Virus genome (UHGV): UHGV-0119144
Length of the DNA stretch: 18,430 nucleotides
Source: a virus
Strand: one strand, 5' to 3'
This document shows, piece after piece, positions 289 to 16,648 of this stretch; the stretch's first letter is position 1, and each line of letters starts with the position of its first letter. The position numbers and the translations under genes are program-made. The notes beneath the pieces are model-generated. The model saw nothing but the letters and a program-made list of their open reading frames with translations. It was not told where the DNA came from and searched no databases.

Positions 289-495
289 GTGCATATGTGT
301 ATCTTTGATACAGCGCACATTAACATCGGGAGAATAATCGTGTCATCCAAGGCTAATTATGAATCGCTGGCATCGATCATGCCGCGTAATGAACAGGAAG
401 CAGATGCTGTAGTGGACCCGGTAATCGCTGAAATGAATGCTCGCCTGGAGGCTGAATTTGCAGCTGAGAATGAACATACCACCCAGGGCGACTAG
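289..495 (+). CDS. Small acidic hypothetical protein (more likely starting at GTG 340 behind GGGAG)
   Basis: ORF in track; acidic, alanine-rich C-terminus; its end overlaps the start of the next gene. No family recognised. Confidence 0.3.
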   Translation: MHMCIFDTAHINIGRIIVSSKANYESLASIMPRNEQEADAVVDPVIAEMNARLEAEFAAENEHTTQGD

Positions 496-1099
496 GACTG
501 TTTTTTGTGTCGGTAGCGGTCCGTCACTCACTCGTGAGGACTGTGCTGCTATAGAAAAAACTGGCTGTTCAATCATCGCGGTTAACAATTCCTGGCAGAT
601 GTTCGATGACATTTATGCCTTATACGCCGGTGATTTGTCATGGTGGAAGCAATACGGATCCACCATACCGGGAGGGAGATTCCGCAAAGTGACAGCCAAC
701 CTGGCGGCGGCGAAATCATTTTCGTTGGAGTACAGGCGATATTGTGGACCGGCTGAAGGGGTTAATAGCGGCGCGCAGGCTATCAGTCTGGCGGCTGAAT
801 CAGGGGCTAAAGTAGTTGTATTAGTCGGCTATGACTGTTCTCTGCAAAACGGCCTTCATTGGCATGGAGCACACCCTCAAGCACTACGGAATCCAACGCA
901 GGTGTCTATTTCAAAATGGCAACAGCAGTTCCTGGATACCCGCAAAAAACACGCAGATTTACATATTTTGAATGCAAGTAGGAGCAGTGCAATTCAATGT
1001 TTCCCAAGAATAAATTTAGAGGCAGTGATCGCGTTATTATCGTCGGCAGTGGCCCAAGCGCCGCAAACTTTGTTGCGCCGCGCGGAGTGCCGATTATAG
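470..1099 (+). CDS. GSGPS-motif protein, paralog A (sialyltransferase GT42 / DUF115-fold-like)
   Basis: Motifs VFCVGSGPSL, IIAVNNSW, NSGAQAISLA, VVVLVGYDCS arranged as in CstII-type/DUF115 nucleotide-sugar enzymes. Alternative start ATG 437. Tandem paralog of the next ORF with similar length (209 vs 208 aa). Confidence 0.5.
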   Translation: MNIPPRATRTVFCVGSGPSLTREDCAAIEKTGCSIIAVNNSWQMFDDIYALYAGDLSWWKQYGSTIPGGRFRKVTANLAAAKSFSLEYRRYCGPAEGVNSGAQAISLAAESGAKVVVLVGYDCSLQNGLHWHGAHPQALRNPTQVSISKWQQQFLDTRKKHADLHILNASRSSAIQCFPRINLEAVIALLSSAVAQAPQTLLRRAECRL

Positions 1100-1623
1100 C
1101 GGTCAATGGGGCCATAGACTGGCTTAACCGCGCTTCTTATTTTTTCACCCTTGATCCATCGCCAGACAATATGCGGCGCGTTGGTCGTGGCCGCCGTCGC
1201 CGTGGTGTTTGTTATTGCATGGCGCTACCCGATGTTAAAGAACGTGAGGTCAGAGACGGCGTTCTGTGCTTCCGTCGTGTGGCTGAGCGCGGCACGGAGC
1301 CAAAAAATACGAATTCTCCCGAGTGGTGGGCGTGGCGCTGGTCCGCACATTTCGGCCTTTGCGAAGATGAGAATGAAATTGCCAGCGGCAATAGTGCATA
1401 TGGTGCTCTGAACCTGGCTTTCCATATCGGATTCAAACATGTCGCCCTGGTGGGCGTTGACGCTACACAAGAACCACGCGTTCACTCCGGCGGCACGCCA
1501 AAAAATCTAAGTCACCTGCCTTTGTTATTCCAGTCTGCGCGTGAACAGATTGACGTTGTTTCATGCGGGAAAATGGGAGGTATTCCGCAGATGACTCTTA
1601 AAGAATGGCTGAAGAATACATGA
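997..1623 (+). CDS. GSGPS-motif protein, paralog B
   Basis: [38 protein letters not shown] motifs collinear with paralog A; overlaps the end of paralog A by about 100 nt; contains an Arg-rich stretch [11 protein letters not shown]. Confidence 0.5.
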
Positions 1624-2297
1624 TGGCACCAACAATTTATCACCGTATCGACGGTACCAAATACAGGAATATCTGGGTTGTTGGTGATCTGCATGGTTGC
1701 TACAACAGACTGATGTCCGAACTCCATCGTGTGGATTTTGACCCGGCGCAGGATTTACTGATATCGGTCGGCGACCTTATCGATCGCGGTACTGAAAATG
1801 TCGAATGTCTGGAACTATTGCAGATGCCCTGGTTCAGGGCAGTGATGGGGAACCATGAGCGGCTGATGATTGATGCGTTAAGTCCAGATGGCAACGTGAA
1901 TAACTGGCTAATGAATGGCGGACAATGGTTCTTCATGCTGGACACTGATCAGGAAATATTAGCCAGGGCGCTGGTGGAGCTGGTAAAGCGTCTGCCCTAT
2001 ATCATTGAGTTGAACACCGGGCAAGAAACTATCGTTATAGCCCATGCCGACTATCCGGATAATGAATACCAATTCGGTAAGGAGGTGCCGCTTTTCAACG
2101 TTGTCTGGGCGCGCGAGCGTATCAGTGATTCGATGGATGATATTGGTGGCGAAATTTCGGGCGCAGATCGTTTTATCTTTGGTCACACTCCGGTGAAAAG
2201 CCCGAAGACATTCTGGAATCAGCATTATATCGATACTGGTGCCGTATTTTGCGGAAACCTGACATTGATGAAAGTGAAAGGTGATGGTGCAGCATGA
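1605..2297 (+). CDS. Ser/Thr protein phosphatase, PPP/calcineurin-like family (lambda NinI / PrpA-like)
   Basis: Signature motifs GDLHG, GDLIDRG, GNHE in canonical order. Likely true start is ATG 1623, overlapping the upstream stop (TGATG). Confidence 0.85.
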
Positions 2298-2995
2298 AGA
2301 TTGCTTTAGTTCTTCGCTCTGGTGGTGACTATAACGCTTCCGATGTGCAGTGGCTGGTTAATCAACTGCCAAAAGGCTATGAAATTATTTGCCTGACAGA
2401 CCTGAAGCGTTTACATGTACCTGGCGTCAAAGTTGTCCCATTGATCAACCAGTGGCAAAAGTGCCGTGGCTGGTGGGCGAAAATCGAGTTGTTCCGACCG
2501 GATATAACCGATGATCTGTTCTATCTGGATTTGGACACGGTTATTGCCGGTGATATACGCCCAATCCTAGAGCATCCACCAACCAGCTTCACCATGCTTA
2601 GGGATTTTTACCATCCACAATATCGTGGCAGCGGTGCCCTGTGGATACCAAATAGTGTTAAAGCGCATATCTGGAGTTCATTCTGGCAAGATCCGGAAGG
2701 TTGGATTTCTCGTTGTGTCACTACTGAGTGCTGGGGTGACCAGGGGTTCTTACGAAAGGTTATGGGCGATGATACACCAGCATTTCAGGATCTGTATCCA
2801 GGATGGTTTGTAAGTTACAAGGCCGATGTTGTGGAACCTGGTTCAAAATATGCGAGCGCGCGTTACTCCAGGGGGAATGGGGCATTACCAAAAGACTGCC
2901 GAATAATCTTTTTCCACGGCAAACCGCGACCTCGCGAAGTGTCAGAGGATTGGCTTCCCCTTATCAGCTCATTTTTTGAGCGAGAATCAGAATAA
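2294..2995 (+). CDS. GT-A-like glycosyltransferase-family protein with DxD motif (function unknown)
   Basis: 233-aa ORF; start overlaps the phosphatase stop (ATGA); N-terminal beta-strand-like [11 protein letters not shown] followed by YLDLDTVI (DxD). Domain call is from motif pattern only. Confidence 0.5.
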
Positions 2996-2996
2996 T

Positions 2997-3013
2997 ATTG
3001 CTCTAATAATTCA
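2997..3013 (+). promoter_or_regulatory. P1 C1-repressor operator-like site (14/17 to ATTGCTCTAATAAATTT)
   Basis: attgctctaataattca immediately after the stop at 2993-2995. Confidence 0.55.
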
Positions 3014-3045
3014 ATATTTTTAAAACGTGATGTACACTCATCACA

Positions 3046-3062
3046 TTTTTTATTAGAGCAAT
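3046..3062 (-). promoter_or_regulatory. P1 C1 operator-like site in inverted orientation (14/17)
   Basis: Reverse complement reads attgctctaataaaaaa; forms an inverted pair with 2997-3013 around the palindrome gtgatgtacactcatcac (3027-3044). Confidence 0.5.
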
Positions 3063-3076
3063 CTGCAAGGTGCACT

Positions 3077-3295
3077 ATGTGGCCATTCCGACGGAAATAT
3101 CACTACTGGCTGATCGCCTTTGTTACGCCGACCGGCGGTATCAGGCATGTCATCACCAGGTATCGCAACAAGAGACTCACCTTAGCCAGAATTTTACAGG
3201 CTGCCATAGGTGAGGGACTGGATACAAATTGCGTAGTCCTTCCACCTTCATACTTAGGAAAAATGACCGAAGCACAAGCTAATACGGAACTTTGA
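3077..3295 (+). CDS. Hypothetical small protein (72 aa)
   Basis: ORF just downstream of the paired operators; AAGGTG 7 nt upstream of ATG; no recognisable domain. Confidence 0.3.
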   Translation: MWPFRRKYHYWLIAFVTPTGGIRHVITRYRNKRLTLARILQAAIGEGLDTNCVVLPPSYLGKMTEAQANTEL

Positions 3296-3451
3296 AATGA
3301 GCACTTCAGCACAAAACCAATCAATCGAAAATGTATCTAGAGGAAACTGCGGCAAGAAGACTTCTCGATGTTTGCTATGCACGTAGCGATGCATGGGAAA
3401 AAGAGAACGGCGGCACTATTTACGTTCGCTGATAGTTACAGTGTCACTTTT

Positions 3452-3486
3452 AATGCTGGTGGAGTGCTCCCACCAGCATTTTTTTC
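3452..3486 (+). terminator. Rho-independent terminator
   Basis: 11-bp perfect stem aatgctggtgg / ccaccagcatt with 7-nt loop, followed by a T7 run. Confidence 0.7.
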
Positions 3487-3504
3487 GTCCAATGAGGAGG
3501 GCAT

Positions 3505-4008
3505 TTGAGTATTTTCAATAAACACGCACACCAGGAACGTCCGTACATCGTCATAGTAGATATTGATGGGACGATATCAGAGGCAACGGAAGACAGGCTG
3601 CATTTACTTCCACCACCTGGCAAAGGTGCATTAACAGAGCACTGGAACGAGTTTAACCTTGCCTGTGACACTGATGCTCCCATCACTCCAGTTATTGATA
3701 TGGTGCGCCAGTTGTCCGGCATTTACACCCTCTGGTTTGTAACCGGGCGCTGTGAGATAGCCAGGGATAAAACACGAGCCTGGTTGCGTAAGCACGTAAC
3801 AAATGGGGCTGAGCCTTTGCTATCTATGCGTCCTGCCACCGATGACAGAAATGACGGTCCAGCAAAGATTGATCTCCTGAAGAAAATTGGTCTAAGTAAA
3901 ATTGCGTTCGCGCTGGAAGATAAGATTGAAGTGGCGCGTGTTTTCAGGAGTCACGGCGTACTTACGTTAATGGTCAGGGAGTATGAAAATGCGCTTCTTC
4001 ATCAATAA
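3505..4008 (+). CDS. HAD-superfamily phosphatase-like protein
   Basis: TTG start 7 nt after GAGGAGG; N-terminal VIVDIDGT (HAD motif I, DxDGT). 167 aa. Confidence 0.55.
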   Translation: MSIFNKHAHQERPYIVIVDIDGTISEATEDRLHLLPPPGKGALTEHWNEFNLACDTDAPITPVIDMVRQLSGIYTLWFVTGRCEIARDKTRAWLRKHVTNGAEPLLSMRPATDDRNDGPAKIDLLKKIGLSKIAFALEDKIEVARVFRSHGVLTLMVREYENALLHQ

Positions 4009-4010
4009 TA

Positions 4011-4027
4011 ATTGCTCTAATAAATCT
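4011..4027 (+). promoter_or_regulatory. P1 C1 operator-like site (16/17)
   Basis: attgctctaataaatct directly after the stop of the HAD-like gene; best consensus match in the window. Confidence 0.65.
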
Positions 4028-4109
4028 TGATTTTTAAAGCAAAGAAAGTGAAAATAAAAACATGCCGCAAGGCGCGGCATGTATCCAATCAATCACAGGA
4101 GCTGAAAAT

Positions 4110-4196
4110 ATGAACACGGCATTCAAAATCATTATGGCCGCGATCTATTTCTGGCTGTTCTCTATCACTTTTGGCGGCATCGTCGCGCATGGGTAA
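4110..4196 (+). CDS. 28-aa hydrophobic peptide (predicted single transmembrane helix)
   Basis: ATG preceded by AGGAG (acaggagctgaaaatATG); translation MNTAFKIIMAAIYFWLFSITFGGIVAHG. Not in the ORF track because of size. Confidence 0.4.
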   Translation: MNTAFKIIMAAIYFWLFSITFGGIVAHG

Positions 4197-4275: not shown

Positions 4276-7200
4276 CTATATTTTTCCGCCTACGTCTTTA
4301 AACTTCTCAATAAACGAGACGATTTTCTGGAAAACTGCCTGTTTTTTCGTTTTATATTGCGGATTTAACGGACTAAGTTTTGGTAATGTTTCGTTTAATT
4401 CTGTGCCATTTTCGGTGGCATATTTGCGTTTTAAAGATGTGCGAATATAGCGTTTTGCTGCATCTTCATTGAGATTTTCTTCTTTAATCAACGCTTCTGC
4501 TTCACGTAGCTGTTCGTGTTGAGCAAAGGTAAAGAACGCGTCAATGATGCTGGCTTTGTCTGGTAAATCATCCAGGTTCGTTTGCTGAATAAAATCGACC
4601 ACCAGGCCCTCTTTCGCCCGGTTCCCCAGGCTTGAACGAATTAAGCGTTTGACCTCTTCGATCATTTCGCCCTTGCCTTTATTTTGTCTGTTATGTTCGA
4701 AAATCAGTCCAAGGATATAATCCAGGTTTATTTCCTGAGATTTCAGCAAATCGACCTCAAAAACTACGTCATCCCAGTCAGTGGTTGATTTCTCTTTTTT
4801 CTCAGCTTCTTTCTCACGGCGCTGCCAGTCGCGAATATCGTTATAGGCAGAACGATAATCCTGAATCTTGCGATCAGCAGGGAGACGAATTGTTTGCAAT
4901 TCAGCGAACTTTTCATCATCCACATAATGTTCTGCTTTGAATTTTTCTACCGCAACAGGATCGCTAAGATCGATTTGTTGCAGGGCTTTTAGCGTGGCAA
5001 ATTCATCATAGTTTTGCAGGATGTTCTCGGCACGCAGGTATTCGCCAAACAGTTTAACGAAGTCTTTCTTCTCTTTTTCACTTTCAATACTGGCAGGGTC
5101 AGGGAACCGTTGTTCCAGTTCTGAAACTACTGTCATGAAGCCGCGTTTAGCTTCACCTGTAGCAGCATCAGTAAAGCCTTCCATATACTCTGTATAACTC
5201 TTTTCTAACACCACATTTTTGGTGTTTTTGTCACCAAACAGCGTTATGGCATCAATAGTTGAGCGTTCCAGATCCCGGAAAGTGACGATATTACCGAAGG
5301 TTTTAGTTGCATCATAAATACGGTTGGTGCGGGAAAATGCCTGCATCAGGCCGTGAAAACGCAAGTTTTTATCGACGAATAGCGTGTTCAATGTTGGAGC
5401 ATCGAAGCCGGTTAAAAACATCCCCACGACAATTAGCAGATCGATATCCTGATTTTTAACCCGCTGGGCTAAATCACGATAGTAGTTCTGAAAACCGTTA
5501 CTGTCGGTGCTAAAGTTAGTTTTAAAATGGCTGTTATATTCACGAATTGCAGCGTCCAGAAACTCTTTAGCACTGCTGTCCATTGCGCTGGTATCAAAAG
5601 TTTCATCGGAAATTTCACCAATGGCATTTTGTTCTTCATTGGCGGCAAAGGAGAAGATTGTCGCAATACGCAGCGGTTTATAGGTAGCCGATTTATTAGC
5701 GGCTTCTTCTTGTAACCGTTTAAACGTCGCATAATAGGCTTTCGCGGCATCCACGCTGCTCACTGCCAGCATGGCATTAAAGCCTTTGGAGCCTGGGAAG
5801 GTACGGTGGGTTTTCTGGCGGAAGTTGTTCAGGATATATTGCGTGATTTCCTGAATACGCATGGGATGAAGAAACGCCTGCTGATTTTCAGCCGCACTTA
5901 GTTTTTTCTCGTCAGTTTCTGTCTCTAAAGACTTAAACTGTGGCCGCACATCGTTGTAGTCTACCTTGAATTTGAGCACTTTTTCGTCACGAATCGCATC
6001 GGTAATTACATACGAATGCAATTCACGACCAAATACGCTGGCGGTTGTTTCTGAGCCTAAGGCGTTTTCCGGGAAAATAGGGGTGCCGGTAAAACCAAAC
6101 TGATAATAGCGTTTGAATTTCTTCTTCAGGTTTTTCTGCGCTTCTCCAAACTGGCTGCGGTGGCATTCATCAAATATAAACACCACTTGCTGATTATATA
6201 CAGGCAGGTCGCTTTCTGCTTTCATCAGGTTATTGAGTTTCTGAATAGTGGTGACGATAATTTTGTTATCGTCCTTATCCAGATTTCGTTTAAGACCTGC
6301 GGTATTTTCCGAGCCGTTGACGCTGTCTGGCGAAAAACGCTGGTATTCCTTCATGGTCTGGTAATCGAGGTCTTTCCTGTCGACCACGAAGAAGACTTTA
6401 TCAATAAAGTCCAGTTCTGTTGCCAGACGCGCGGCTTTAAAGCTGGTCAGTGTTTTACCAGAACCGGTAGTGTGCCAGATAAAGCCACCGCTTTCGGGGT
6501 TAGACCAGTTTTTCGCTTTATAGGAGCTGTTGATTTTCCATAAGATTCGTTCGGTGGCGGCAATCTGGTACGGTCGCATCACCAGTAGCGTCTGACTACT
6601 GTCAAAAACGCTGTAGTTCACCAGAACATTCAGCAGAGTATGTTTCTGGAAAAAGGTAGCGGTAAAGTCTTTGAGGTCTTTAATCAGCGTGTTGTCTGAT
6701 TTCGCCCAATTCATGGTGAAGTCAAAACTGTTTTTATCGCGCTTTGTCGTGTTGGCAAAATAACGGGTATCGGTGCCGTTAGAAATGACAAACAGTTGCA
6801 GATACTTAAACAGGGAATTTTCGCTGTTAAAACTCTCTTTACTGTAACGATGTATCTGGTTGAAAGCCTCACGAATCGCCACCCCGCGTTTTTTTAGTTC
6901 GATTTGCACCAGCGGTAAACCATTAACCAGGATCGTGACGTCATAACGGTTAGCATGAGAACCCGTCTGTTCAAACTGCTGGATAATCTGCACCTTATTG
7001 CGCATGAGATTCTTTTTATCTATCAAATAGATGTTCTCAAGACGCTCGTCATCAAAAATAAAGTCGCAAATATAGTCGATATGGATTTTACGGGTCTTAT
7101 CCAGAATGCCATCACTCGGGTTGTCCAGATACTGCTCCGTGAAACGCCGCCATTCGCTGTCATTAAACACCACACCATTGAGGTTCTGAAGCTGTTCCCG

Positions 7201-7392
7201 AACGTTGGCCAGCATCGCCGACTGTGATTTTACGGGTATAAATTCATAGCCCTGATTTCGCAGGTCCTGAATCAGTTCCCGTTCCAGGTCCGATTCACTC
7301 TGATAGCTGTCGCCTGTTGGCTCAGCTTTGATGTACTTATCAAGAACGATAAAGTTATTGGATTCAGCAATGGTGTGTGTCTGATGAGTCAT
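4276..7392 (-). CDS. hsdR: Type I restriction enzyme R subunit (HsdR), type IC / EcoR124 family
   Basis: 1038 aa; PD-(D/E)xK nuclease motif ([18 protein letters not shown]), helicase motifs TGSGKT and FDECH; N-terminus [14 protein letters not shown] as in EcoR124-type HsdR. Confidence 0.95.
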
Positions 7393-7513
7393 AGCGCATC
7401 CTTTGTGCCGTCTGGCAAGGGCCGGAAGGGAGTTAAGGGCGACTTCCGGCGTGTAGAAAATAGTCTATATACTGACCGGATGTTAAGGTGGTCCGGTCTG
7501 TAAAAATGCTCAA

Positions 7514-8727
<1,214 letters not shown>

Positions 8728-8731
<4 letters not shown>

Positions 8732-10290
8732 TTCTGCACCTCGCAGCCTTCAATTTCAGCCACAATCGCATCAATATCTTTACGCAACTGGTCGATTTTG
8801 CTGACCGTGGTTTTCAGCTCTGCATTCAACTCAGCGATATTGATAATTTCGCGAGTATCTTTCGCTTCCACATAGCTGCTTACCGACAGGTTATAGTCAT
8901 TAGCGACAACGGCCTCAAACGTGACAGATTTTGCCAGATGAGCAACATCTTCCTTGCTGGAAAATACCTGCATAATCTGTTCGATATGGGCATCAGTCAG
9001 GATGTTGTTATTAGTCTCTTTTTTGAATAGCTCGCTGGCGTCAATAAACTGAACGTTGGTATCGGTTTTATGTTTAGACAGCACCAGAATATTGACGGCA
9101 ATGGTGGTGCCAAAGAACAGATTCGGTGCCAGTGAAATCACGGTTTCGACATAGTTATTGTCGACCAGATACTGACGGATTTTCTGCTCCGCACCGCCAC
9201 GGTAAAAAATACCCGGGAAGCAAACAATCGCAGCACGACCTTTGGCAGAAAGATAGTTCAGCGCATGTAATACAAACGCAAAGTCAGCTTTGGATTTGGG
9301 GGCCAGAACGCCAGCCGGGGCAAAACGTTCATCGTTAATCAGCGTCGGGTCATCGCTGCCAATCCATTTCACCGAATACGGCGGGTTAGAAACGATGGCA
9401 TCAAACGGTTTTTCATCTCTGAAGTGCGGTTCAGTCAGCGTATTGCCCAGCTTGATATCAAACTTGTCGTAGTTGATGTTGTGCAAAAACATGTTCATAC
9501 GCGCCAGGTTATAGGTCGTATGGTTGATTTCCTGACCAAAAAAACCTTCTTCGATGATATGGTCATCAAACTGTTTTTTAGCCTGCAACAACAGCGAACC
9601 GGAGCCTGCTGCCGGGTCGTAGATTTTGTTAACGTGGGTCTGCCCGTGCATAGCCAGTTGTGCAATCAGCTTAGAGACGTGCTGCGGTGTAAAGAACTCG
9701 CCGCCTGACTTACCGGCATTTGCCGCATAGTTAGAGATCAGGAACTCATAGGCATCACCGAACAGGTCAATCTGATGTTCGTTGAAGTCACCAAGTTTTA
9801 ACCCTTCAACCCCTTTCAGAACCGCAGCCAGGCGGGCATTTTTATCTTTAACGGTGTTACCCAGGCGGTTACTGGTGGTATCGAAATCAGCAAACAAACC
9901 TTTGATGTCTGCTTCTGAAGGGTAGCCGTAAGCAGAACTTTCGATAGCAACGAAGATGCTGTTTAAATCTGCGTTCAGTCTGTCATTGGTATTTGCTTTC
10001 GCAGCTACGTTGCAGAAAAGCTGACTTGGGTAGATGAAGTAGCCTTTGGTTTTGATGGCATCGTCTTTAATGTCATCAGTAATTACGCTGTCATCCAGTT
10101 TCGCATAACAGATGCTGTCATCACCGGCTTCAATATAGCTGGAAAAATTTTCGCTGATAAAACGGTAGAAAAGCGCGCCCAGAACGTATTGCTTAAAATC
10201 CCATCCATCGACCGAACCTCTGACATCGTTAGCAATTTGCCAGATTTGACGATGAAGCTCTGCACGTTGTTGAATACTTGTCATTTTCAT
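8728..10290 (-). CDS. hsdM: Type I N6-adenine DNA methyltransferase subunit (HsdM), type IC
   Basis: 520 aa; SAM-binding motif [10 protein letters not shown] and catalytic NPPY. Confidence 0.95.
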
Positions 10291-10466: not shown

Positions 10467-10688
10467 ATGCAATCCATTAACTTCCGTACCGCGCGCGGCA
10501 ACCTTTCTGAAGTGCTCAACAATGTTGAGGCCGGGGAAGAGGTTGAAATCACCCGCAGAGGCCGTGAGCCAGCAGTAATTGTCAGCAAGGCTACTTTTGA
10601 AGCCTACAAAAAAGCGGCGCTGGATGCTGAATTTGCATCCCTGTTTGACACCCTGGACTCCACCAACAAGGAACTGGTTAACCGATAA
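10467..10688 (+). CDS. phd: Phd antitoxin (Phd/YefM family), P1-type
   Basis: 73 aa, [49 protein letters not shown]; stop overlaps the doc start (TAATG). Confidence 0.95.
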
Positions 10689-11068
10689 TGAGGCATATAT
10701 CACCGGAAGAACTTATTGCGCTTCATGATGCGAATATAAACCGCTACGGCGGCCTGCCGGGAATGTCTGATCCGGGTAGGGCAGAGGCCATTATCGGGAG
10801 AGTTCAGGCCAGAGTTGCCTACGAAGAGATCACCGACCTTTTCGAAGTCTCCGCCACCTACCTGGTGGCTACGGCGAGAGGGCATATATTCAATGATGCC
10901 AATAAGCGTACCGCGCTAAACAGTGCGCTGCTATTTCTACGCCGTAACGGGGTGCAGGTATTTGATTCACCTGAACTGGCAGACCTTACTGTAGGCGCTG
11001 CGACTGGCGAGATATCTGTATCTTCTGTCGCCGACACGTTACGTAGATTGTATGGTTCTGCGGAGTAG
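10688..11068 (+). CDS. doc: Doc toxin (Fic-fold kinase), P1-type
   Basis: 126 aa with Fic motif HIFNDANKR. Confidence 0.95.
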
Positions 11069-11279: not shown

Positions 11280-12323
11280 GTGAAAGCCGTAATTACTCCC
11301 TTTGTACAGAAAGAACTTGGCCTCGCCACGTTCAAAGTGGATCAGGAGGTCAGAAAGCTGGTGGAGGCTGGCCGTAAATTTATTATGGAGCCGGTGCCGC
11401 GTGAGTTAATCGAGCACATGGACGACGGCCTCGTTGCTTCCGAGCAAACTATAGCAACAAATGAGGCGTTGCAGCCGTTTTTTAACAGCGATGAACTGTT
11501 TCGCCGTATTGGTGGAATTGACGCGCTGGTGGCGTGGTTGCGCAGGAAAGAGGGGCAATGCCAGGCCGCAGATCGTAGCTGGTGTGACAACCATATTGTC
11601 CACGCTGAACGAGACAATAGCGCGGTGTTGTTGTGCTGGCATCACGATAACCATTACCGGATGCGTGGTTTTAATGAGCTGAAAGAAACGCTGCACAATA
11701 ATCGCGTTAACTGGATACTGGATGTCGCCCGTCAGGAAATGGGCCTTTCAGATAGCCATGATTTAAGTATTCAGGAGCTGTGCTGGTGGGCTTTCATGCG
11801 TAACATGATGCACCTGATGCCGGAAGAAGTCTGCCGCATATCAATAAATAAGATGAAGGCTGCTCCGCAGGATAGCGGACCTCTGAAAGAGGCGGATATT
11901 CGCCCGTATGACGATCGCGCTACAGCATATGTTCAGATGATGGAAGAACGCGCCGCGCCGATGCGTGCAAAAGTATGCCCTGTGGATGTTGACTCCGACC
12001 CAGGTATGGCGCATTTCAAAATACCAAAACTTCAATCGCTAAAATTGCCCGAGTACATGGACTTTGTGGCTTCCCGTCCATGCTGTGGCTGTGGAGCTGC
12101 GGGAGCTGGCGCTCACATTACGCCTTATATCGTTCGTCATAGTCGATTATGCGCGCATGACATTTACGCAATTCCTCTGTGCCAGTCATGCCAGCGTGAT
12201 ATTGAGCGTGACCGCGATAATTGGGAGAAGACGCACGGTAGGCTGGCGATGCATCAACGATTGTTCTTTGATTACGCGCTTGGAGTCGGCGCTATCACAA
12301 GTTACTCGTCGAGCGTTAGATAA
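11280..12323 (+). CDS. Cys/His-rich hypothetical protein (occupies the P1 pdcB position)
   Basis: 347-aa ORF, GTG start behind AAGGTG; metal-ligand-like clusters [15 protein letters not shown]...CWHHDNH and C-terminal CCGCGAAG...LCAHD...CQSCQRD. Confidence 0.5.
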
Positions 12324-12324
12324 A

Positions 12325-12341
12325 ATTGCTCTAATGTATTG
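12325..12341 (+). promoter_or_regulatory. P1 C1 operator-like site (14/17), with an overlapping partial repeat ATTGCTAT
   Basis: attgctctaatgtattg immediately after the stop at 12321-12323; followed by inverted repeat gattag/ctaatc around TTGACA (12376-12398). Confidence 0.5.
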
Positions 12342-15315: not shown

Positions 15316-15537
15316 ATGGCTACTGTCCCTACCCCAATTCATCCTGAATTTATCTGGCGCTTTTACTCCTGCCAAAAACGTCACTATCACTTCGTTATTG
15401 CACCGACAGAAGATGAGGCCCATTCTCAGCTTCCTGACGCTCCCTGCATTTTCTCTGCCCGCTTTTCAACCGATTTGCGCAATTCTCTCAGTTACTGGTG
15501 CCTCCCTGTTAACGCTTCTGCTCAGGAGGGACTATGA
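15316..15537 (+). CDS. Icd-like small protein (73 aa), translationally coupled to ant
   Basis: AAGGAGG RBS; stop overlaps the ant start (ATGA); size and position match P1 icd. Sequence identity not confirmed from memory. Confidence 0.45.
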   Translation: MATVPTPIHPEFIWRFYSCQKRHYHFVIAPTEDEAHSQLPDAPCIFSARFSTDLRNSLSYWCLPVNASAQEGL

Positions 15538-16648
15538 GAACGTCATTAGTTACCCGTGAAGAGATGATCGAGGCAATTGAACAGCACACTGCCTGTATCA
15601 GTACTAGGGATATACCGGGCGTTATTGCCAACTACTTCATGATCACCAAACAACTTTACCGGAGAAAGGACAAGAACGCAGTTCACCGCATCCTGCTGTC
15701 TGATATCCGCGAATACCTGCTCGAACAGGGGCATCTGAATTACGCAACCGTCGCAGCCGAAGCACGCAAGGAGGCACACAGAATGAAAGCTACTAACGTT
15801 AAATCAGAAAAAGTTCATGCACCTTCAGTTCAGGAATCAGAGCTGGTGGTTGTTCAAAATCAGTCGGATGAAATTCCCGTTCTGGAGTGGCAGGGAGTGC
15901 GTGTCGTAACAACCGAAACTCTTGCTAAGGGGTATGGTACAGAAGCGATTCGCATTCGCCAGAATCATCATGAGAACAAAGTACGCTTTGTTGAAGCGAA
16001 GCACTTTTTCAAGGTTATTGGCGATGAGCTGAAAAATTTGCGGGTAGCTTTAAACTACTCACAAAATCCAGTCTCCCCCAAAGCGCGCTCTCTCATCCTC
16101 TGGACAGAACGAGGAGCTGCCCGTCACGCTAAAATGCTCGAAACCGATCAGGCATGGGCATTCTTTGAAAAACTGGAAGACAGCTACTTCCGACAAAAAG
16201 AACAGCAACCGGTCGCAATCCCCCAGACGCTTCCAGAAGCTCTGCGCCTGGCTGCCGAGTTAGCTGAACAAAAGCAACTTCTGGAACAGAAAGCCCACCA
16301 GCTAAATCAGCAGCTGGTGGCTGCCGCTTCTAAAGTCGATTTTGCCGACCGGGTATCAGTAGCTAAAGGGATCCTGATTGGGAATTTTGCAAAGGTCGTT
16401 GGACTTAAACAAAATGCGCTGTTTGCCTAGTTACGGGAGAACGGCATTCTGATAGCGTCCGGAGGCCGTAAAAATGTACCGTTCCAGCAGTACATCAACG
16501 CGGGTATTTCACGGTGAAAGAAGTGGTGCTGGATGATGAAGATGGCTACCAGATACGGTTGACGCCTCAATTAACGGGTAAAGGCCAGCAGTGGTTGACG
16601 CGTAAACTGCTCGATGCTGGCTTGTTAAAACCGGTGGCGGCTGAATAA
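15534..16648 (+). pseudogene. ant: Antirepressor (AntA/Bro-N-like core plus KilAC-type C-terminus) with nonsense and frameshift lesions
   Basis: Open to TAG at 16428-16430, sitting where KilAC proteins have an aromatic residue (LFA*LRENG). The downstream KilAC-like sequence continues in frame as ILIASGGRKNVPFQQYINAG, then shifts by one frame near 16502 into GYFTVKEVVLDDEDGYQIRLTPQLTGKGQQWLTRKLL. Confidence 0.6.

Follow-up and report, generated by a model that had tools for sequence, protein, structure and literature searches.

What is the function of the genes found between positions 437 and 4008 of the virus genome UHGV-0119144, and do they make up one system? The stretch of DNA that was analysed (18,430 nucleotides, in the following called the window) is DNA of a P1-like phage-plasmid, and its first 4.2 kb are 97-99% identical to phage P1 and its relatives. 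The original prediction postulated that five genes in this region, coding for two paralogous proteins, a DxD glycosyltransferase-like protein and two phosphatases, form one translationally coupled enzyme module and that this module is a strong candidate for an undescribed system. The latter claim goes too far, since the genes are named P1 genes: in the P1 reference annotation they are pmgO, pmgP, ppp, pmgQ and pap, plus pmgR and a deleted pmgS, the RefSeq labels read sialyltransferase, glycosyltransferase and metallophosphoesterase, and the PHROGs labels are similar. New here are the co-occurrence of PmgO, PmgP and PmgQ, their natural fusions, the genomic contexts in which they are found, and their separation from the two phosphatases. 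The best explanation that we can offer, a tentative one which we would put somewhat below an even chance, is that PmgO, PmgP and PmgQ constitute a late-expressed glycan-building cassette which takes cytidine monophosphate (CMP)-activated 3-deoxy-D-manno-oct-2-ulosonic acid (Kdo) and a uridine diphosphate (UDP)-hexose from the host and acts on a protein acceptor, most likely a protein of the virion head.

The first step is to decide what kind of proteins the two paralogs are. The genes pmgO (437..1099, plus strand, 220 aa) and pmgP (997..1623, plus strand, 208 aa) code for true paralogs with the Maf/CstII (DUF115) fold, and both are putative CMP-ulosonic-acid glycosyltransferases of this DUF115/MptE-like type. 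The shared motif order on which the fold had been called is present as described, with G26-S-G-P-S30, A48-V-N50, N110-S-G..LA119 and L129-V-G-Y-D133 in PmgO and G17-S-G-P-S21, A35-V-N37, N132-S-A..LA141 and L151-V-G-V-D155 in PmgP. The two family profiles align end to end with an hhalign probability of 98-99% and E-values of 1e-12 to 1e-15, in a run where the fusion protein P0051 had been removed from the alignment (P and L numbers are our designations of proteins and loci). The predicted models, with a predicted local distance difference test score (pLDDT) of 86.4 for PmgO and 94.6 for PmgP, best match the Maf flagellin glycosyltransferase, followed by MptE and CstI/II; for the PmgP model the Foldseek E-values are 9e-4 for Maf, 1e-3 for the MptE HPPK and 0.03-0.08 for CstI/II. 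The modified GT-A/Rossmann fold of these three enzymes is present in both PmgO and PmgP, and profile searches and models together show that the fold calls made from motifs were right. Pfam PF01973 scores 24.1 bits in PmgO and 20.9 bits in PmgP against a gathering threshold of 34.6 and covers the C-terminal motif only; some homologues have a precomputed PF01973 match.

The residues expected to be catalytic are also kept. In the N-terminal nucleotide-binding loop G-x-G-P-S and the Asn which follows it, the PmgO family has G28, P29, S30 and N50 without exception, and in the PmgP family G19, P20 and S21 are nearly invariant and N37 is invariant. Both families keep an invariant Asp, the N-S motif and the Asp of G-x-D. 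The residues required for activity are E324 and D415 in MmMaf and D272, S334 and D357 in the Clostridium botulinum Maf (CbMaf). Candidate equivalents, chosen without residue-level superposition, are D66/S111/D133 in PmgO and D53/S133/D155 in PmgP, and all of them are invariant; the spacing from Ser to Asp is 22 in both proteins compared to 23 in CbMaf.

The third protein, PmgQ (2294..2995, plus strand, 233 aa; phrog_1962, 'glycosyltransferase'), resembles, as judged by profile searches, a GT8-like retaining GT-A glycosyltransferase, and its nearest relatives are the GT8 retaining hexosyltransferases. The family profile matches the Skp1 alpha-galactosyltransferase 6mw5 with an E-value of 1.1e-7 and the GT8 enzyme 5gvv and glycogenin with 5e-5 to 1e-4. 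The motif D79-L-D81 is invariant and is aligned to the DAD/DSD of the GT8 structures (E 1.1e-7 and 4.6e-5). PmgQ shares with glycogenin, the Skp1 enzyme and WaaJ/WaaO the DxD and its surrounding strands, a compatible size and the GT-A layout, but with 233 aa it is shorter than the matched GT8 chains (263-501 aa). At the C-terminus PmgQ has F-H-G-K-P-R-P, with H208-G-K-P-R-P213 nearly invariant, where GT8 has H-x-x-G-x-x-K-P-W; the G and the second P align to the G and P of WaaJ, whereas the His is in a different register. The alignment of the PmgQ profile with E. coli WaaJ is weak (hhalign probability 58%, 154 columns), and 51 members of the PmgQ family gave no Pfam match at E<=0.01, Glyco_transf_8 (PF01501) included.

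Do these three proteins belong together? Profiles for each gene were run against the open reading frames (ORFs) encoded in loci which had been taken from unrelated genomes and from viral contigs. The scans of viral collections mostly gave near-identical copies of P1; the diversity comes from a genome scan, about 12 non-P1 viral loci and by-protein look-ups. PmgO, PmgP and PmgQ are found together in about 20 independent loci in Gamma-, Beta- and Alphaproteobacteria, Bacteroidota and Gemmatimonadota, mostly as direct neighbours which share one strand. The named hosts are Pantoea, Pseudescherichia, Buttiauxella, Serratia, Citrobacter, Pseudomonas, Zhongshania, Microbulbifer, Methylophilaceae, Ochrobactrum, Brevundimonas, Commensalibacter, Sinomicrobium (Bacteroidota) and Longimicrobiales (Gemmatimonadota), all of them Gram-negative and lipopolysaccharide (LPS)-making. 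In the same searches PmgN, Ppp and Pap had no match outside P1-like elements, and PmgR had a single weak one (E 2e-4, in L115). An exhaustive profile search placed 611 representative clusters in the PmgP family, and PmgP is the most conserved member of the module.

The fusions tell the same story. Natural proteins were found in which PmgO is fused to PmgP (P0051), PmgP to PmgQ in either order (PmgP-PmgQ and PmgQ-PmgP), PmgQ-PmgP to a methyltransferase, and a methyltransferase to PmgP; those joining PmgP with PmgQ are P0299, P0366, P0391 and P0347. None of the fusions found includes a phosphatase. The position between pmgP and pmgQ is in other phages often taken by a fourth small GT-A-like enzyme, a GT2-like enzyme or an S-adenosylmethionine (SAM) methyltransferase, and such extra partners are as expected for glycan assembly. 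The co-occurrence part of the proposed module is thus confirmed by synteny and fusions for PmgO, PmgP and PmgQ and contradicted for the two phosphatases, and the conserved functional unit, as judged from gene content, appears to be a set of three glycosyltransferases for glycan assembly, centred on PmgP and PmgQ, not a set of five enzymes. The fourth gene, which is absent from the window, codes for about 190 aa with a weak match to PF03407 (nucleotide-diphospho-sugar transferase) in five out of five homologues and no PHROG match; it is found at 10254-10835 in L112, 8555-9139 in L117, 9222-9797 in L122, 7636-8184 in L097, 9757-10335 in L003 and 8252-8827 in L194.

What, then, are the phosphatases doing here? 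Both had been assigned to the right families. Ppp (1605..2297, plus strand; alternative starts at 1620 and 1623) is a lambda-type PPP-family Ser/Thr phosphatase with the motifs GDLHG, GDLIDRG and GNHE; it scores 61.4 bits with Metallophos (PF00149, cutoff 21.5) and 278.7 and 241 bits with the PrpA/PrpB-like NCBIfam models, in both cases below the cutoff (326 for the PrpA-type equivalog). All PPP motifs are shared with the lambda protein phosphatase and NinI, and the P1 annotation gives Ppp 64% identity to the lambda phosphatase. Pap (3505..4008, plus strand, 167 aa; phrog_415) begins with TTG behind an AGGAGG ribosome-binding site and is a PNKP-type HAD phosphatase (HAD_PNKP, PF25109, 44.1 bits against a cutoff of 27.6) with D-I-D-G-T at residues 19-23. 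It shares the phosphatase domain and the DxDGT nucleophile motif with T4-type Pnkp but lacks the kinase domain; no P-loop kinase model in Pfam or NCBIfam matched, and Pap is a phosphatase domain alone. The PADLOC defence-system models gave no match except a chance-level one of 13 bits for Ppp. As members of the module the two proteins fare badly, since neither was present in any of the non-P1 loci examined or in any fusion protein. The gene ppp persists between pmgP and pmgQ in the relatives L088, L129, L146 and L154 (PmgP match 60-73% identical), and in the P1-sized relative L115 its slot is empty and pmgP runs directly into pmgQ. From this distribution ppp and pap look like separately acquired additions of the P1 lineage outside the conserved core.

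The organisation of the operon points the same way. It is correct that the five ORFs are co-directional, from pmgO at 437-1099, pmgP at 997-1623, ppp at 1605-2297 and pmgQ at 2294-2995 to pap at 3505-4008, and the junctions are as described: an ATGA at 2294-2297 fuses the stop of ppp with the start of pmgQ, at the TGATG junction an ATGATG at 1620-1625 overlaps the pmgP stop codon TGA (1621-1623) with in-frame starts of ppp, and the overlap between the paralogs, estimated to about 100 nt, measures 103 nt (997-1099). Homologues conserve the start of PmgP, and in PmgO conservation extends to about codon 200, so that part of this overlap is constrained in both frames. The C1-operator-like sites at 2997 (plus), 3046 (minus) and 4011 (plus) are the annotated P1 operators OpmgRa, OpmgRb and OpmgT, and in the whole window six such matches were observed versus 0.11 expected. 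These sites do not bracket one operon as had been claimed. The pair OpmgRa (2997-3013, plus) and OpmgRb (3046-3062, minus), which is divergent and spans 2997..3062 around a hairpin with a T-run at 3027-3044, falls inside the span between pmgQ and pmgR; this is where the pmgN-pmgQ unit ends and the pmgR unit begins. The P1 operator for the pmgN-pmgQ unit is Oppp (Op83) at about 280-296 in the window, which together with the promoter PpmgN lies upstream of pmgN. Oppp, pmgN, pmgR (3077-3295) and a 29-codon remnant of pmgS had all been overlooked in the five-gene unit. Furthermore, pap is translationally coupled to nothing, and is preceded by a strong intrinsic terminator (3452..3487, plus strand; an 11-bp stem with 6 GC pairs, then TTTTT) which parts it from pmgR and the pmgS remnant. 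Because the operators and the terminator split the span, the five genes do not make up one unit. As read from the junctions, translational coupling is predicted to hold together the unit pmgN-pmgO-pmgP-ppp-pmgQ, and a second unit would hold pmgR, the pmgS remnant and pap; the terminator and the separate C1-controlled unit rule out pap as a member of the first. Further C1-operator-like sites are found at 12325, 14960 and 17627 with 2-3 mismatches to ATTGCTCTAATAAATTT, which suggests that the right half of the window has additional C1-controlled units.

The genomic contexts give hints to where the glycan might be placed. In six HK97-type prophages (L096, L098, L110, L112, L114 and L120) the cassette follows right after the major capsid gene and is itself followed by the gene for a head-tail adaptor or a head-closure protein. 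L196 codes for a trifunctional enzyme, the gene of which lies between those of the large terminase and of the major head protein, and in L195 the cassette is between the lysis genes and the terminase. In P1 the cassette adjoins pmgR, a head-completion gene (PMC9024508). Glycosyltransferase genes inside a structural or late block, the hallmark of a virion-glycosylation cassette, are found in the capsid-side loci, in L196 and in P1. About half of the loci have the cassette beside lysis genes or the antiterminator gene Q rather than head genes; in L003, L004, L101, L121, L122 and L194 it is in or beside the lysis cassette, or between Q and the holin gene. Two loci carry adhesin genes. The chromosomal trio L113 of Pseudescherichia (18.6 kb) is interleaved with five Big_1/invasin-type adhesin genes, with no phage genes, and one of this set is an inverse autotransporter; the likewise chromosomal Serratia plymuthica locus L004 has the trio together with two Big_1 genes, leftover phage lysis genes, a lipoxygenase and a lipase. 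From their gene content these two loci may be dedicated adhesin glycosylation islands. Exceptions to all these contexts are L192, placed among nucleotide-metabolism genes, and the chromosomal L193, which has no obvious context. The capsid proteins encoded beside the cluster have no Ser/Thr-rich extensions, only short Gly/Ser ends, and specificity is not callable from them. In P1 itself the region as a demonstrated structural operon was considered and rejected.

How could the three enzymes work? PmgO and PmgP would transfer a CMP-activated sugar acid, and PmgQ would add a hexose from a UDP-sugar, giving a short glycan. PmgO and PmgP probably work as a pair, because their genes overlap and a natural fusion of the two exists. 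Expression would occur during lytic growth, from the C1-repressed promoter of P1 and probably also from a late promoter upstream of pmgL. There are no sugar-nucleotide synthesis genes in the module, and to our knowledge CMP-Kdo is the only CMP-activated sugar acid found in E. coli K-12. These two points, together with the LPS-making hosts and the precedent of Maf enzymes which can attach Kdo to Ser/Thr with CMP-Kdo supplied by E. coli itself (bioRxiv 10.1101/2020.06.03.131540), argue for CMP-Kdo as the donor of PmgO and PmgP; with a UDP-hexose as the donor of PmgQ, we consider this assignment about evenly balanced between right and wrong. The acceptor would be a virion protein, presumably of the head, in the same way as Maf acts on flagellin and as capsids are glycosylated in mycobacteriophages. 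A protein or virion acceptor is a possibility which we favour only with reserve, because for both enzyme types the nearest solved relatives include protein-directed enzymes, because of the late and head positions, and because of the adhesin-side copies. Ppp and Pap would in this scheme be separate phosphatases of the P1 lineage with substrates of their own. P1 single-gene knock-outs make normal plaques, keep antirestriction and show the genes to be non-essential (PMC9024508), which is as expected for a virion decoration dispensable in the laboratory.

The main rival holds that the acceptor is not a protein but the LPS inner core or another envelope glycolipid. PmgO and PmgP would then, like WaaZ, put an extra Kdo on the lipid A-Kdo2 core and PmgQ would add a hexose like WaaJ/WaaO; the core receptor of P1 and many other phages would be altered or truncated, and superinfection or the loss of progeny on debris would be limited. 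P1 adsorbs to glucose of the LPS core, and overexpression of waaZ truncates the outer core. WaaZ, the Kdo III transferase of E. coli K-12/R2 and Salmonella, shares with the paralogs an N-terminal (I/V)xxSGP(S/T)...IIAVNG motif and an A..A....G.D region, and its donor would be the same CMP-Kdo as proposed for PmgO and PmgP; unlike these it has 283 aa and is encoded in the waa operon. Direct hhalign comparisons with the single E. coli sequences of WaaZ, WaaS, WaaJ and WaaO gave weak matches only, of which the one with WaaZ (E 0.002) covers the NS..GxD region. TIGR04437 matches P0051 with an E-value of 2.9e-4 and PmgP with 0.11, and a faint precomputed match to PF27901 exists. In bits, the WaaZ models TIGR04437/NF007333 give 11.8 for PmgP, 20.3 for P0051 and no match for PmgO; scores of 12-20 bits are far from the cutoff of 200 bits, and they cover only the common nucleotide-binding motif. 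No solved WaaZ structure was among the matches in either PDB search, and the best structural neighbour is a protein glycosyltransferase.

With respect to PmgQ the LPS reading gains from the fact that GT8 includes core enzymes and that the alignment with WaaJ takes in the DxD and the C-terminal G..P motif. It also gains from the hosts, every named one of which makes LPS, and from the positions beside Q and lysis genes, which are like those of accessory genes and suit a host-directed function; a target in the host would explain how the cassette moves between phages with unrelated capsids. Timing is the difficulty: the genes are C1-repressed in the lysogen and belong to late and head modules, and LPS which is already at the surface cannot be altered by enzymes made late. 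Moreover, cores differ widely across Enterobacteriaceae, Bacteroidota and Gemmatimonadota and yet the enzymes are conserved, and the adhesin-island context needs no LPS explanation. LPS-core remodelling is the strongest rival to a protein acceptor, and we judge it unlikely.

Much less probable is the pathway originally predicted, in which the three transferases and both phosphatases together modify a small molecule, a glycan or a nucleic acid. The close coupling of ppp between pmgP and pmgQ in P1-like elements, diverged relatives included, and the position of pap about 1 kb downstream in the window are what one would expect of it. The phosphatases are nevertheless missing from all non-P1 trio loci and fusions, L115 does without ppp, the slot between pmgP and pmgQ elsewhere holds a glycosyltransferase or methyltransferase, pap belongs to another C1-controlled unit behind the terminator, and each single knock-out is silent.

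PmgO and PmgP could also be ATP-dependent pyrophosphokinases of the MptE or thiamine-pyrophosphokinase type which act on a pterin, a vitamin or a signalling nucleotide. The fold allows such a role, to which we give little probability: Maf outscores MptE, the N-S and G-x-D motifs match residues which Maf requires, and the constant partnering or fusion with one or two GT-A enzymes, sometimes with a methyltransferase, points to glycan assembly, not to cofactor activation. The two-domain fusions of PmgP and PmgQ in both orders could be taken to mean a glycan polymerase, alternating sugar acid and hexose to make a free or lipid-linked polysaccharide during infection, and the capsule polymerases of Neisseria W and Y are indeed two-domain and bifunctional. 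We give this even less weight, since in none of the loci examined is the cluster accompanied by genes for export, a lipid primer or chain length, and a capsule has no obvious use late in the lytic cycle.

P1 DNA is an ordinary substrate for restriction. Glycosylation of phage DNA bases against restriction is the least probable alternative, since the known systems, in which phage glycosyltransferases attach Kdo and other sugars to 5-hydroxymethylcytosine, need a C5-methyltransferase with a TET-like dioxygenase or a hydroxymethylase and use a Kdo enzyme of GT-B fold (bioRxiv 10.1101/2023.12.21.572611), genes for making an acceptor base are absent from the window and from the other loci (even though L192 lies among ribonucleotide reductase, ThyX-like and deoxynucleoside monophosphate kinase-like genes), and antirestriction of P1 is unchanged in the knock-outs (PMC9024508). 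Of the targets first suggested, DNA and a signalling nucleotide have the least support, and a protein acceptor, which was not on that list, fits the contexts best.

The remaining features of the window can be described briefly. The first gene of the C1-controlled pmgN-pmgQ unit, pmgN (289..495, plus strand), is a small ORF of phrog_2350, for which no function is given; it overlaps pmgO by 59 nt, and P1 annotates a shorter pmgN of 51 codons. In P1 pmgN was essential in a CRISPR interference (CRISPRi) screen and non-essential by deletion (PMC10695390). On the other side of the cassette pmgR (3077..3295, plus strand, from the P1 annotation) is a neighbour of the glycosylation core and not a member. 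It is followed by the remnant of pmgS (3297..3386, plus strand), 29 codons left by an out-of-frame deletion of 1,125 bp. In P1 pmgS has 1,263 bp between pmgR and pap, and from the break in blastn (P1, L001, 6285 versus 7411) the junction of the missing 1,125 bp is at 3338/3339 in the window. The gene is intact in the best 12 plasmid matches and in phage phi456, and it is counted among the 'extremely conserved' genes of P1-like phage-plasmids (PMC9603915). The deletion left pmgR, the essential neighbour of the truncated gene, untouched.

The operator OpmgT (Op88; 4011..4027, plus strand, one mismatch to the consensus) opens the next unit. Just past it an ORF at 4062-4196 (plus strand), annotated as hypothetical in phi456, contains a minus-strand terminator-like hairpin at 4060-4082, and its last 28 codons (ATG at 4113) encode the very hydrophobic peptide MNTAFKIIMAAIYFWLFSITFGGIVAHG; judged by composition the product could be a small membrane peptide. 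Past pap the window no longer follows P1, and a complete EcoR124-type (type IC) hsd locus (4276-10290, minus strand) separates pap from the remaining P1-like backbone, with hsdR at 4276-7392, hsdS at 7514-8731 and hsdM at 8728-10290, all on the minus strand. At the corresponding site reference P1 has only a short stretch, whose annotation notes a similarity to sequences downstream of the hsd loci of EcoDXXI and R124; P1 may hold the scar of a type IC hsd locus, or the site may be a recurrent insertion point. Downstream of the hsd locus a Fic/Doc-family toxin gene (10688-11068), a gene for a DUF968 protein (11280-12323) and an ORF6N/ANT antirepressor-like gene (15534-16430) are ordinary P1-type accessory genes. 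At the left end the match to P1 begins at base 54, and the ORF at 63-272 is only the C-terminal part of pmgM; phi456 matches the window from base 1. The left end is probably an IS1 junction, because phi456 has insB of IS1 directly upstream of the truncated pmgM.

Few phages are used more in bacterial genetics than P1, and resistance genes are commonly carried by phage-plasmids of the P1 type; the region matched 800 plasmid records. The genes of this region still go under position-based 'putative morphogenetic' labels, and three of them are now seen as a conserved, widely travelling glycan-building cassette. In the literature searched, which was of limited coverage, we came across no earlier account of Maf-like clusters in phages or of glycosylated P1 virions, and none of the conserved PmgO/PmgP/PmgQ cassette, of its fusions or of its contexts among head, late and adhesin genes. 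If the acceptor is in the virion, phage glycan coats would extend from mycobacteriophages to phages of Gram-negative bacteria, which would bear on antibody recognition in phage therapy, and Kdo would be a natural protein modification. It would be the first natural Ser/Thr-O-Kdo modification of a protein and the first virion glycosylation system in a Gram-negative phage that we know of. If the acceptor is LPS, the cassette would represent phage-encoded core remodelling acting on the phage's own receptor.

How does the cassette compare with systems already known? The closest fold is that of Maf, e.g., the Magnetospirillum enzyme (PDB 5mu5), a protein of 632 aa whose large flanking domains, one N-terminal and one C-terminal, presumably bind flagellin. 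In comparison, PmgO and PmgP are bare domains of about 200 aa, with only 12-16% sequence identity to Maf and a PF01973 score below cutoff, and none of the loci examined contains flagellar genes or a flagellin or nonulosonic-acid synthesis context. To the GT42 enzymes CstI and CstII of Campylobacter jejuni the sequence E-values are only 0.1-0.7, and CstII acts on lipo-oligosaccharide with CMP-Neu5Ac, a donor absent from E. coli K-12. The autotransporter heptosyltransferases Aah and TibC are cytoplasmic enzymes which divert the LPS precursor adenosine diphosphate (ADP)-heptose to O-glycosylate surface adhesins. They are comparable to the trio copies in the adhesin islands by analogy only, as their fold is unrelated and the sugar is another. 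A more specific form of the preferred reading would give P1 and a broad range of temperate phages of Gram-negative bacteria a portable cassette which O-glycosylates their virion proteins with Kdo and hexose, sometimes methylated, from diverted host LPS precursors; taken in all its parts it is rather improbable. Virion glycosylation in mycobacteriophages of the Che8 type was reportedly the subject of Freeman et al. in 2023. Che8-type cassettes are mentioned in PMC11256854. They decorate capsid and tail proteins and are dispensable for plaque formation, whereas for the trio a virion decoration is proposed, and the enzyme families, the donors and the hosts (Actinobacteria versus Gram-negatives) are different. 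What they have in common with the trio is the arrangement: glycosyltransferases encoded by the phage, sometimes together with a methyltransferase, among or near the structural genes.

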